From a virus (taxonomy: Duplodnaviria > Heunggongvirae > Uroviricota > Caudoviricetes), in IMG/VR virus record IMGVR_UViG_2751185958_000012: a DNA stretch of 6,929 nt; one strand, given 5' to 3'. The position numbers and the translations under genes were made by a program. Under the pieces are notes generated by a model. That model was not told the DNA's origin. It searched no databases and saw only the letters and a list, made by a program, of their open reading frames with translations. Below are positions 1,187-6,929 of this stretch, piece by piece (position 1 is the first letter of the stretch; the number at the start of each line of letters is the position of its first letter).

Positions 1187-3465
<2,279 letters not shown>

Positions 3466-3471
3466 AGGGGG

Positions 3472-3494
3472 ACTAAACTATCACTATAGGGAGA
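3472..3494 (+). promoter_or_regulatory. T7-class promoter-like sequence P2: ACTAAACTATCACTATA|GGGAGA, +1 at 3489
   Basis: The 14-mer TCACTATAGGGAGA is identical to T7 consensus positions -8 to +6. The upstream specificity region (-12 to -9, ACTA) differs from T7 (CGAC). Lies 29 bp downstream of P1 on the same strand. Confidence 0.7.
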
Positions 3495-3845
3495 GACCCT
3501 AAGTCCCCCCGGCTTAATACAGCCACCGACCCACACATTCATTAAATCTCAGGCTTCCGGTAGCGGACCGATTGGAAACCATCCGCAATAAGCCTAGTGT
3601 TAAATCACCTTGGCCTGAGACCATTCCCTTTAACGTAGCAATCTCTCTCCTTTGACAGGCGGAGAACATCAGACCTCAGCGGAACTTCCGTCTATGAGAC
3701 CATCGGTGTGCGAGATTGTGAAGAACCAAGACATCATTGCTGAGGTCTGCCATCCATTGTGGACAGGCGGAAACTCAAAGAGGTTAGACCAGTAGTGGTG
3801 TCTGAGGTCGGACTTTGAGTCCTGACCAGCAGGCTGGAGGAGACC

Positions 3846-4028
3846 ATGAGTTTATCTTGTTATGGATTGTGTTATCACAATTCCAATAAGAAGAACTTTA
3901 AGTCCAGCCTCCACTCCCGCCAACCCGAAGTAAACTATGGTCGCTATGATGTGGTCTCCATGCTTCGGGTCTTACTGGAAGTACTGAACACTTTCGCGTC
4001 AAGTTCTCCGAAGTTCATTCCTGTTTGA
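3846..4028 (+). CDS. Hypothetical small protein, 60 aa
   Basis: Strong Shine-Dalgarno GGAGGAG (3836-3842) with a 3-nt spacer before ATG 3846. Sits about 360 nt downstream of the tandem phage-type promoters. No recognisable domains; could instead be part of a structured leader RNA. Confidence 0.4.
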   Translation: MSLSCYGLCYHNSNKKNFKSSLHSRQPEVNYGRYDVVSMLRVLLEVLNTFASSSPKFIPV

Positions 4029-4050
4029 CTAAACTATCACTATAGGGACC
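4028..4050 (+). promoter_or_regulatory. T7-class promoter-like sequence P3: ACTAAACTATCACTATA|GGGACC, +1 at 4045
   Basis: A 22-nt exact repeat of P2 (3471-3492 equals 4027-4048, GACTAAACTATCACTATAGGGA). Abuts the stop codon of ORF 3846-4028. Confidence 0.7.
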
Positions 4051-4102
4051 ATATCTCGCCTCTGACCTCCTGAGAGACGGCAAGCGAGAAACCGTGGTCC
4101 AC

Positions 4103-4116
4103 GCTAGCAAGCTAGC
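4103..4116. repeat. 14-bp near-palindromic motif GCTAGCAAGCTAGC, copy 1 (two GCTAGC palindromes separated by AA)
   Basis: Exact 14-mer is repeated at 5503-5516. Copy 1 lies 58 nt downstream of the P3 +1 position. Confidence 0.5.
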
Positions 4117-4364
4117 CACCAGCCTAAGGCAAGACAGCCTCTGGTCAGCCTGTGTGTTCTTTGGTCTCGTGACTTAAGTCTATCACCACACACGCTCGGA
4201 CATGCTGTCGAACCTTCATCTCTATGGTCATCGCAGACCACTAACCCCAATTACCTCAAGTCATTCTGTTTGCGTCCTGTTGCCTGCTGGTCTCCCTTTA
4301 CGTGGGGGCTTGAGTAGGTCAGTGGGGTGCGACTTCAGGGTGCAAACAAAAGGAGTACACGTAA

Positions 4365-4397
4365 ATGACCCAACAAGAAATCAGCGTCATTAACTGA
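4365..4397 (+). pseudogene. Probable native 5' end of the Rha-like gene (MTQQEISVIN), cut off by the IS629-like insertion
   Basis: AAGGAG RBS at 4351-4356 with an 8-nt spacer before ATG 4365. The ORF runs only 10 codons, to a TGA that is the first three bases of the IS terminal repeat (4395-4397). Same reading frame as the downstream Rha-like ORF. Confidence 0.4.
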
Positions 4398-4631
4398 ACC
4401 GCCCCGGGAATCCTGGAGACTAAACTCCCTGAGAAAGAGGTAAACAGGATGACTAAAAATACTCGTTTTTCCCCCGAAGTCCGTCAGAGGGCGATTCGTA
4501 TGGTTCTGGAAAGTCAGGGCGAATATGACTCACAGTGGGCGGCAATTTGTTCCATTGCCCCAAAGATTGGCTGTACACCGGAGACTCTGCGTGTCTGGGT
4601 ACGCCAGCATGAGCGGGATACCGGAGGCGGT
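4395..4631 (+). mobile_element. IS3-family (IS629-like) left-end fragment, about 237 bp: terminal inverted repeat plus the first ~61 codons of orfA
   Basis: Begins TGAACCGCCCCGGGAATCCTGGAGACTAAACTCCC, which matches the IS629/IS1203 left end as I remember it. Encoded N-terminus [61 protein letters not shown] is the HTH part of IS629-type OrfA. Similarity stops near 4631; the breakpoint is placed from memory and is approximate. Confidence 0.75.
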
Positions 4632-5336
4632 TCAAACCTCGACCAGCTTGTCTCCATGACCTCAATTGAAATTGCTGAGCTGACAGGCAAGGAGCACCGA
4701 AATGTCCTGCGTGATATTCGCAATATGGCTGAGGAGCTTAACGCGCTCAAAACTGAGCAGTGCTCAAAACTGAGCAGTCATATCGGGGTGACTAAAGATG
4801 TTTATCTAAACGCGCAGGGGAAACAGCAGCCTCTGTACCGTCTCGACCGTAAGCATACTTTTATTCTGGTCGCTGGCTATTCCGTTCACCTCCGCGCCAA
4901 GTGTTACGACCATATTCAGACGTTAGAGCGTCGAGTCCTTCAACTGGAAGACCAGAAGAAGCGAGCAGCCATTCAGTCTGCTAACCGTCGAGGCGTGACT
5001 TGGGGCGACTACTGCAAAACCTATGATCTACCCGCTCAGAAGCTAATGACCGCACTTCTCCAGCATCGTGGCCTCTTTCGTAAGAACCCAATCAGTAACG
5101 AGTGGTCTGTAAATCCGAAGTATTCCGACTGCTTCCGTATCATTAAGCCGTCTGACCAGAAGTTCTCAGCAGGTGGTTATAACTTTCGCTTCAACGCTAA
5201 GGGATTGGAGGTCTTCGGTAAGCCTGCGATAGTCGATAAACTGCGAGGCATCCTTATTGCCTTCACTGGCACCGACCAGCAGAAGCAAGAGCATCTCCTG
5301 AAGCAGGCCCAATCCGGCAAGCTGGAGGGACTCTAA
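4449..5336 (+). CDS. Chimeric ORF, 295 aa: IS629-like OrfA N-terminus (aa 1-61) fused in frame to a Rha / KilA-C (ANT) phage antirepressor-like protein (aa 62-295)
   Basis: Rha signature [22 protein letters not shown] ... [43 protein letters not shown]-terminal KilA-C/ANT-like segment [44 protein letters not shown]. The start codon and RBS are IS-derived. Confidence 0.8.
4745..4778. repeat. Perfect 17-bp tandem direct duplication (GCTCAAAACTGAGCAGT x2) inside the Rha-like ORF
   Basis: Units at 4745-4761 and 4762-4778 are identical. The unit length is not a multiple of three. Confidence 0.9.
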
Positions 5337-5337
5337 G

Positions 5338-5529
5338 ATGATTGACCCGCGCACACCTGAGGGCCGCATGACTCTCCGTTACCGTGGCTACCGGACTGAA
5401 GTCCTCCTCAGAGAGCTTGGTCTAGACCCGGAAGATGAGACCCGCCAGCACCAATCACGAGACGAGCTGATAGTGCAACTGGTCGCTATGAAACTGCCGT
5501 CAGCTAGCAAGCTAGCGCCTAACCGTTAG
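5338..5529 (+). CDS. Hypothetical small protein, 63 aa
   Basis: ATG 5338 lies 1 nt after the upstream stop (TAA 5334-5336). GGAGG at 5324-5328. No recognisable domains. Contains the second copy of the GCTAGCAAGCTAGC motif near its 3' end. Confidence 0.45.
   Translation: MIDPRTPEGRMTLRYRGYRTEVLLRELGLDPEDETRQHQSRDELIVQLVAMKLPSASKLAPNR
5503..5516. repeat. 14-bp near-palindromic motif GCTAGCAAGCTAGC, copy 2
   Basis: Exact repeat of 4103-4116. Confidence 0.5.
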
Positions 5530-5649
5530 CAGCTCACCTACTTAATACCTCATTTTAAACCTTTTGAGATGACCGATGCGGGGAGACGCCGCAGGACTAA
5601 ACACGCCTGTGGTCGACCGATAGTCTCAACCTCAAAGGAGTACCAGCAT

Positions 5650-6224: not shown

Positions 6225-6479
6225 ATGACCATGACAAAAGACGCTTTACAGTTTGGCATTGAGCCAGTTCGCATTACTGATACTGACAACATGCAGGTAA
6301 ACGAAGGTCTCCCGACTAACGCCGACCCTCAGGTCTATGCCTTCCAGTTAGCTAAGCTGGTGAAGACCATGCTCAATTCTGTACTTAAAGACGCTCAGGA
6401 TAACATTCCGTTCCCTGTAGAAGTCCTGCCGACCCGTAACAGCTTACCGACTCCAATCATTGCTCACACTCTGGCTGGG

Positions 6480-6482
<3 letters not shown>
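6225..6482 (+). CDS. Hypothetical protein, 85 aa; probably a 5' gene fragment truncated by the downstream IS insertion
   Basis: AAGGAG at 6209-6214 upstream of ATG 6225. The stop codon TGA (6480-6482) coincides with the first three bases of the IS3-family terminal repeat TGAAGTGG. Confidence 0.5.

Positions 6483-6929
<447 letters not shown>

Follow-up and report, generated by a model that had tools for sequence, protein, structure and literature searches.

Codon 10 of a Rha-family regulatory gene is the site of an IS629 insertion in the DNA analyzed here (the window), a stretch of 6929 bp that makes up the entire draft contig MDGW01000118.1 (GCA_001712525.1; L016). Judged from its ends and from the duplication that flanks it, the insertion appears to have begun as a complete element whose interior was lost afterward, rather than as a stray piece of an IS. 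What is left places the DNA-binding domain of the IS629 protein OrfA in frame ahead of the Rha body, in a single open reading frame of 295 codons. This hybrid is probably a by-product, the accidental scar of one IS629 transposition into Rha codon 10 that was followed by loss of the interior of the element. The empty site, the target duplication, and the deletion junction were all found, giving a clean reconstruction of an IS gutted in place that left an in-frame domain swap behind.

Genomic setting and identity of the interrupted gene

The Rha-type gene sits within a small integrase island that adjoins tRNA-Gly(CCC). The other features of the window are as follows.

121-900: actS/ygeR
979-1052: tRNA-Gly(CCC)
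1187-2794: tyrosine integrase gene
2787-3446: zinc-ribbon/DUF4145 gene
Between the zinc-ribbon/DUF4145 gene and the Rha-type gene: a stretch of about 920 bp without a called gene
After the Rha-type gene: two small ORFs (163 amino acids, and a truncated one of 85 amino acids) that match no family
Contig end: IS911 fragment

An Rfam scan of the window returned nothing besides the tRNA-Gly. The equivalent locus is found in many E. coli genomes, where it lies between actS-glyU and the ygeQ/ETT2 remnant and holds an intact gene for a 242-amino-acid "Rha family transcriptional regulator."

The initial annotation had described the interrupted gene as encoding a Rha/KilA-C antirepressor, and the first half of that description is well founded. 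The Pfam family Phage_pRha (PF09669) matches residues 70-160 of the chimera with a score of 64.9 bits (cut-off 29.9; 1e-17), covering model positions 1-90 of 91. The general antirepressor class is supported by the PHROG family phrog_10324, "anti-repressor Ant," which matches over the whole protein (4.7e-69), and by a Foldseek search of the predicted model, which returned phage regulatory and antirepressor proteins in BFVD, some of them annotated as KilAC (E = 3.5e-5 to 2e-3 for these). The KilA-C half fares less well: the ANT/KilA-C domain (PF03374) stays below the threshold of 25.3 bits with a score of 15 bits and an E value of 0.033; the match spans just positions 21-67 of the 108 in the model and is a resemblance rather than an established membership. 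Searches of the PDB by sequence and by Foldseek gave no informative relative.

Anatomy of the insertion

Aligned with three intact E. coli alleles, the window has one clean inserted block of 243 bp that they lack. The block consists of a 240-bp IS629 derivative (4395-4634) and a second copy of the 3-bp target AAC, so that the layout reads AAC / IS(1-237)+TCA / AAC. The features of the interrupted gene, in order of position, are these.

4350-4355, + strand: AAGGAG, the Shine-Dalgarno sequence of native Rha, 9 nt upstream of the ATG, in a flank conserved in intact alleles
4365-4397, + strand: orphaned leader ORF, MTQQEISVIN (codons 1-10 of native Rha) and TGA
4392-4394: target-site duplication AAC, left copy (Rha codon 10); single in the empty site, double in the window
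4395-4634, + strand: internally deleted IS629, 240 bp, with IS positions 1-237 joined to TCA, the end of the right inverted repeat
4395-4419, + strand: left inverted repeat (IRL) of IS629, intact, about 25 bp; the AP000422.1 label "inverted repeat from left end of IS629" lies under the match
4437-4440, + strand: GAGG, the ribosome-binding site of orfA, 8 nt upstream of the ATG, as in full-length IS629
4449-5336, + strand: chimeric ORF, 295 codons and stop, made up of OrfA 1-61, Ser62, and Rha residues 10-242
4449-4631, + strand: OrfA-derived codons 1-61, with a complete helix-turn-helix (HTH); the end lies in the Gly-rich linker that leads to the leucine zipper
4626-4631: GGCGGT, 6 bp of microhomology where the internal deletion was joined, equal to IS 232-237 and to IS 1302-1307
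4632-4634: TCA, the final 3 bp of the IS629 right end and the hybrid codon Ser62
4635-4637: target-site duplication AAC, right copy (Asn63 of the chimera)
4635-5336, + strand: Rha body, native residues 10-242 and stop, with Phage_pRha, a long central helix, and an antirepressor-like C-terminal part

In its positions 1-237, an IS3-family element of 1310 bp in E. coli 720632 (L006:1441-2750), which carries its own 3-bp duplication, CAT, is identical (100%) to positions 4395-4631 of the window, and the same part of the window shows 97% identity to IS629 elements annotated by depositors. Full IS629 copies that are 100% identical across positions 1-237 are also present on S. boydii plasmids. The initial annotation had placed an IS segment of about 237 bp here; the homology does run exactly from 4395 to 4631 and ends in frame, as had been set beforehand as a test that could refute the proposal, but the inserted unit is 243 bp, namely 240 bp of IS sequence and AAC. 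A start of the IS to the left of 4395 was considered and rejected: the top matches in one search, to plasmid nikB::IS3 junctions, began 15 bp farther upstream, and the alignment there is a chance partial match to the flank.

Both outer ends of the remnant are those of IS629, with TG...CA termini that match its terminal inverted repeats, and the flanking AAC copies, which had been proposed as something to look for, form a 3-bp target duplication; those of IS629 are 3-4 bp long (PMC3271280). The initial view of the block as a bare IS629-like fragment has to be given up in favor of an insertion with both termini and a target duplication, the interior of which was probably deleted later. In the full element, IRL and the right inverted repeat (IRR) agree at 23/25 of the first positions. 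The right end of the remnant retains GGCGGTTCA, of which just 3-9 bp are true IRR sequence, the remaining match being fortuitous orfA sequence. Positions 232-237 of the IS, in orfA (...ACCGGAGGCGGTGATGG...), and positions 1302-1307, in IRR, both read GGCGGT; IS 215-260 of the reference reads ...CCGGAGGCGGTGATGG, and the IS ends with ...CCCGGGGCGGTTCA. The bases around the two GGCGGT copies are also alike, which explains why the remnant termini (4395-4413 and 4616-4634) are complementary at 16/19 positions. Deletion between the two repeats takes out 1070 bp (IS 238-1307) and leaves exactly 240 bp, a unit marked by the sequence GGGATACCGGAGGCGGTTCA.

Of the protein-coding part of an autonomous IS629 (orfA-orfB, a programmed -1 frameshift, and a DDE transposase), just orfA codons 1-61 are left. 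There is no orfB and no DDE domain, and the remnant is thus a nonautonomous derivative and not a functional IS.

The uninterrupted allele

Four draft genomes reached through the neighboring 163-amino-acid protein (L018, L021, L025, and L027) carry intact alleles that begin MTQQEISVINLDQL. Their Rha gene is the window gene minus 243 bp, identical at 729/729 nt, and in two of these genomes (L021 and L027) comparison with the flanks of the window shows 1 substitution in 4831 nt. In the same two genomes, the BLAST segments on either side of the insertion overlap on subject bases 2986-2988, which identifies AAC as single in the empty site. The intact-allele protein (P0135) occurs in 64 contigs named for Escherichia coli.

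These alleles bear out the earlier proposal that intact homologues begin with the 4365 ORF, and they correct its details. Deleting 4395-4631, as had been suggested, does rejoin the gene in frame; the real unit is 4395-4637, two codons longer, and the proposed join ...VIN-SNLDQLV is replaced by the native N terminus of the empty site, MTQQEISVIN-LDQLV.

The gene (729 nt) has not diverged at all since the insertion. V20I, E63K, and G140D, which are unique to the window in comparison with three E. coli alleles and affect positions at which 114, 123, and 121, respectively, of 123 homologues keep the conserved residue, were considered as signs of relaxed selection after the insertion. This interpretation was rejected, since the intact alleles of the four draft genomes (P0135) already carry all three changes, which are therefore older than the insertion.

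The chimeric reading frame

The native Rha start codon, preceded by AAGGAG, now opens only the 10-codon leader ORF. Its stop, TGA at 4395-4397, is formed by IS bases 1-3, at the start of the left inverted repeat, just as the initial annotation had noted. The orfA ATG at 4449 lies 84 nt from the native ATG in the same frame, and the only stop between the two is the TGA that opens the IS. From this ATG, which the IS supplies together with the GAGG site and 61 OrfA codons, the frame is open through to 5336, with Pfam matches to both HTH_Tnp_1 and Phage_pRha in one ORF; on these points the earlier reading was accurate. HTH_Tnp_1 occupies chimera residues 1-64 (model positions 1-56 of 75).

In OrfA, the Gly-rich stretch in which the fusion point falls (DTGGG|DGG) is followed by the leucine-zipper region. 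Alignment with full OrfA shows that the zipper region itself (LTTAERQRLKELERENRELRR...) is missing from the chimera. Of the two parts of an IS3-family OrfA, an N-terminal HTH and a C-terminal leucine zipper, the chimera has therefore kept the first and lost the second. In the related element IS911, the HTH is a specific DNA-binding domain, the leucine zipper is a multimerization domain, and OrfA is a regulator of transposition (PMC2909936).

Predicted expression and structure of the hybrid

The orfA translation signals of the chimera are those of an active IS. Transcription would come mainly from the untouched Rha promoter and read through the remnant, so that the hybrid protein is probably made; a scan of positions 3400-5600 for a consensus sigma-70 promoter and for a terminator-like site found neither. 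In the predicted mRNA fold, the two ends of the remnant pair with each other (z = -2.4), and this pairing could lower translation from the orfA site.

For P0003, a close intact allele, the AF2 model gives residues 1-8 a pLDDT below 50 and places the first structured element from residue 11 onward, suggesting that the insertion point falls in a floppy N-terminal tail of Rha. In the model of the chimera, the Rha secondary structure is unchanged and stands behind three low-confidence predicted helices and a floppy linker. Two conserved residues are lost in the fusion, Ile9 (invariant, 122/122 homologues) and residue 8 (Val or Ile in 121/123), so the fold or function of Rha could nevertheless be impaired.

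Distribution of the hybrid

The exact 295-amino-acid protein is present in 31 Shigella contigs named for S. boydii. An identical junction is found in several complete chromosomes (CP001063.1, of the carrier strain S. boydii CDC 3083-94, CP026795.1, CP026797.1, CP026814.1, and CP049281.1), and each Shigella locus that was fetched contains exactly one copy of it. The chimera-bearing loci are near-identical to the window and differ in later IS insertions: one has an IS66-family element near 3340, and IS911 lies at 6478 or at about 3905 or is absent in others. These nearby IS66 and IS911 insertions vary while the IS629 remnant is constant, which makes the remnant older than they are. The remnant is fixed in a clonal Shigella lineage and can serve as a lineage marker for this Shigella clade. 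In one genome (L019; GCA_002968185.1), the OrfA part has lost 1 bp from its C5 run (4473-4477), which has led to the gene being called from Met18; the deletion may represent decay or a sequencing error.

None of 5,426 complete E. coli genomes has the deletion junction; every match in them stops at query base 77, which corresponds to IS position 237. Among the matches listed for 72,556 plasmid and 50,697 phage records, all likewise end at IS position 237, and the junction was not found in GTDB species representatives or in JGI metagenomes. Separate scans for the left and right junctions in GTDB representatives and complete E. coli genomes returned just ordinary IS629 copies and intact alleles, and no complete E. 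coli genome carries IS629 at the Rha site in either orientation. A speculative and improbable reading would make the AAC site a hot spot for IS629 that also took a separate insertion, oppositely oriented, in S. flexneri, in which case disruption of the regulator would be convergent.

Origin of the hybrid

The structure of the locus is best read as the outcome of two events. A full 1310-bp IS629 would have inserted in the orientation of the gene and duplicated the target AAC, and a 1070-bp deletion between the GGCGGT repeats in orfA and in the right inverted repeat would then have emptied its interior, so that IS 1-237 and TCA stayed behind. With a net gain of 243 bp and with orfA and Rha sharing a frame, the native start would yield a 10-residue peptide, and the orfA ribosome-binding site and ATG would open the 295-codon ORF for the OrfA HTH, its natural Gly-rich linker, and an essentially complete Rha body. 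Most likely, we infer, the hybrid is a neutral or mildly Rha-impairing accident and not a new regulator favored by selection.

The deletion itself probably arose by replication slippage or by microhomology-mediated joining. That the right-terminal TCA still adjoins the right flank is consistent with a deletion between direct repeats but not with strand transfer from an IS end; self-attack by the transposase was rejected as the origin of the deletion by this logic. Microhomology-mediated joining has been documented around IS629 excision in EHEC, in connection with the IEE protein (PMC9943667), and could in principle have acted here.

A different order of events would have the 240-bp unit exist beforehand as a miniature, MITE-like derivative of IS629 that was mobilized in trans by IS629 transposase and inserted ready-made. 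The target-site duplication and the two recognizable ends, complementary at 16 of 19 terminal bases with the first 9 perfect, would suit such an element, and the same strains hold IS629 copies that could act as helpers. A mobile unit would be expected to recur, however, and no second copy of the junction was seen in the E. coli, plasmid, phage, GTDB, and JGI collections or in the fetched Shigella loci. Moreover, the apparent right end owes most of its match to chance orfA likeness, with just 3-9 bp of true IRR. We consider this origin unlikely and prefer that of a full-length IS629 emptied after it had inserted.

The initial annotation had left open whether the gene is an inactivated regulator or a neofunctionalized fusion. 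In a fusion of the latter kind, the OrfA HTH, the domain by which IS3-family elements recognize their ends, would sit on the Rha body and bind to the ends of IS629, or direct Rha activity to them, and so influence transposition of IS629 or the expression of genes in a Shigella genome rich in IS copies. Several features are compatible with this idea. The deletion junction lies in the natural linker between HTH and zipper and retains the whole HTH module; the ribosome-binding site and start codon of the IS are kept; and matching full IS629 copies reside on S. boydii plasmids. The HTH of IS911 binds DNA specifically and its OrfA regulates transposition (PMC2909936). The chimera is also intact in nearly all 31 contigs while adjacent DNA gained IS insertions, although in a near-clonal lineage with zero divergence such retention is uninformative about selection. 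The leucine zipper with which IS3-family proteins dimerize on the ends is missing (PMC2909936), but the long central helix of Rha may supply multimerization in its place. Against the idea also stand the frameshift of the HTH part in one genome (L019) and the fact that an in-frame hybrid requires a coincidence of only about 1 in 6 (orientation x frame). Taken to its conclusion, the idea would make the hybrid a two-headed DNA-binding protein, with the Rha body dimerizing the OrfA HTH in place of the lost zipper, that damps or redirects IS629 or re-targets the Rha protein of a tRNA-Gly defense island to IS629 copies. We regard the neofunctionalized fusion as very unlikely, and the two-headed protein as equally improbable. 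Binding of the hybrid to IS629 ends, if shown, would make it a rare instance from nature of a transposase DNA-binding domain recruited onto a host-element regulator.

An artifact of assembly or annotation, in which a chimeric contig fused an IS read to the Rha gene, might be suspected of a short draft contig that is bounded by IS sequence at both ends and whose right end is about 82 bp of IS911 short of the complete genomes, but it is refuted by the identical junction in independent assemblies that include several complete chromosomes.

Comparison with known elements and regulators

The remnant shares with IS629 (IS3 family; isoforms IS1203 and IS3411) the left 237 bp, the TG...CA termini, the 3-bp duplication, and the ribosome-binding site, ATG, and HTH of orfA. 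What sets it apart from IS629 is the loss of 1070 bp. Gone with them are the zipper-coding part of orfA, the frameshift site, the whole of orfB including its DDE domain, and the greater part of the right inverted repeat, and the remnant is a single-copy sequence that is unable to transpose alone. It resembles MITE-like elements in its size of 240 bp, its terminal inverted repeats, its target duplication, and its lack of a transposase. It differs from them in that its right "repeat" is, for the greater part, orfA sequence that resembles the inverted repeat by chance, and in that one copy is known from the collections searched and the fetched Shigella loci, as opposed to multiple dispersed copies.

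The palindromic elements of Rickettsia are mobile segments whose length is a multiple of three and which lie inside ORFs with the downstream frame kept, and in these respects the remnant is alike. Here, however, a stop codon closes the frame of the native start and translation would reinitiate at the IS ATG, which makes the event an N-terminal swap and not an internal insertion.

With the phage Rha/Ant regulators (PF09669; phrog_10324), the interrupted gene has in common a full Phage_pRha domain, full-length PHROG similarity, and the predicted fold. It differs in that it lies in a small chromosomal integrase island and not in an intact prophage, and in that the first 9 residues have been swapped for a transposase HTH in the Shigella lineage. 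Overall, the locus is a precisely explained transposon scar, probably accidental, and not a new kind of system.

The origin of the gene also bears on its annotation. The 295-amino-acid protein is listed in RefSeq as an ordinary Rha regulator ([quoted passage not shown]) and in one source as a transposase ("transposase [Shigella boydii]"); it is really an IS629::Rha hybrid.

A possible second IS629 insertion at the same target

The AAC target of IS629 in the phage-type Rha regulator gene appears to have been used more than once. In S. flexneri VA-6, the first 31 residues of a 264-aa "Rha family protein" (P0011; EGK16401.1) correspond to the IS629 left end translated from its reverse complement, and the IS629-to-Rha join of this protein falls exactly at the junction point in the window (GGT TCA/AAC CTC; window 4632-4640). 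As judged from these sequences, the reversed N terminus and the shared join together imply that IS629 entered this AAC site a second time, independently of the insertion in the window and facing the other way. The AAC site is a possible hot spot for IS629. The target (TTAACCTCGACC) and the IS end (TGAACCGCCCCG) are alike at 7 of 12 positions.

IS629 has also inserted in or beside an antirepressor gene of an unrelated element, the Stx2 phage VT2phi_272, where the features underlying the IS629 match (H78; HQ424691.1, 33977-34213) are annotated as "IS629 transposase orfA" and "anti-repressor protein Ant".

Variation within the chimera and the Rha gene

L019:2712-2912 (GCA_002968185.1), equivalent to window 4473-4477: C-run variant in the OrfA part of the chimera
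4745-4778, plus strand: 17-bp perfect tandem duplication, two copies, in the Rha gene

One genome carrying the chimera, represented by locus L019, has a run of four C residues in the OrfA part where the window has five; as a result, its helix-turn-helix (HTH) is frameshifted and the gene call starts at Met18, giving a product of 278 aa (P0136). Either the chimera is at an early stage of decay in this genome, or the missing C is a sequencing error in the homopolymer.

Further downstream, the Rha gene carries two copies of the unit GCTCAAAACTGAGCAGT. The first copy is also seen in intact E. coli alleles, at the point where their alignment to the window ends. Homologues vary in length (forms of 233, 242, 247, and 252 aa) exactly at this repeat, with varying ELNALKTE-like repeats, and this region is thus a hypervariable linker following the Rha domain.

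Genomic context of the Rha gene

2787-3446, plus strand: PD-T7-4 homologue gene, directly after the integrase gene
3447-4364: unannotated stretch of about 920 bp, from the RAZR gene to the Rha gene
6478-6929, minus strand: IS911 fragment at the end of the contig

The first of these genes overlaps the integrase stop by 8 bp. Its product is homologous to PD-T7-4 over its full length: the PADLOC match to this anti-phage system (2.7e-102) covers model positions 1-209 of 211. PD-T7-4, recently renamed RAZR, is a zinc-finger/HEPN RNase (PMC13017515), and the homologue has the catalytic R146 and H154. Given this gene directly after the integrase, the Rha gene belongs to a small defence island that is integrase-borne and located at tRNA-Gly.

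The stretch between the RAZR and Rha genes is conserved in E. coli, where it is likewise unannotated, and scans revealed no convincing ORF, Rfam match, or consensus promoter or terminator within it. The Rha promoter is presumably located here, perhaps with further regulatory elements.

At the contig end, the IS911 fragment breaks a gene for a 328-aa hypothetical protein, leaving 85 aa (6225-6482). Relative to complete Shigella genomes, some 82 bp of IS911 are missing from the window, and the two aligned segments share a 10-bp overlap; both features are probably an assembly artefact. The position of the IS911 insertion varies among strains.

Beyond the island, the Shigella loci L008-L013 (locus coordinates about 13000-20000) carry YecR-like genes, IS1, and ABC-transporter genes, whereas the E. 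coli counterpart has the ygeQ/ETT2 type III secretion remnant downstream of the island. This difference suggests an IS-associated loss or rearrangement of ETT2 in this Shigella lineage.
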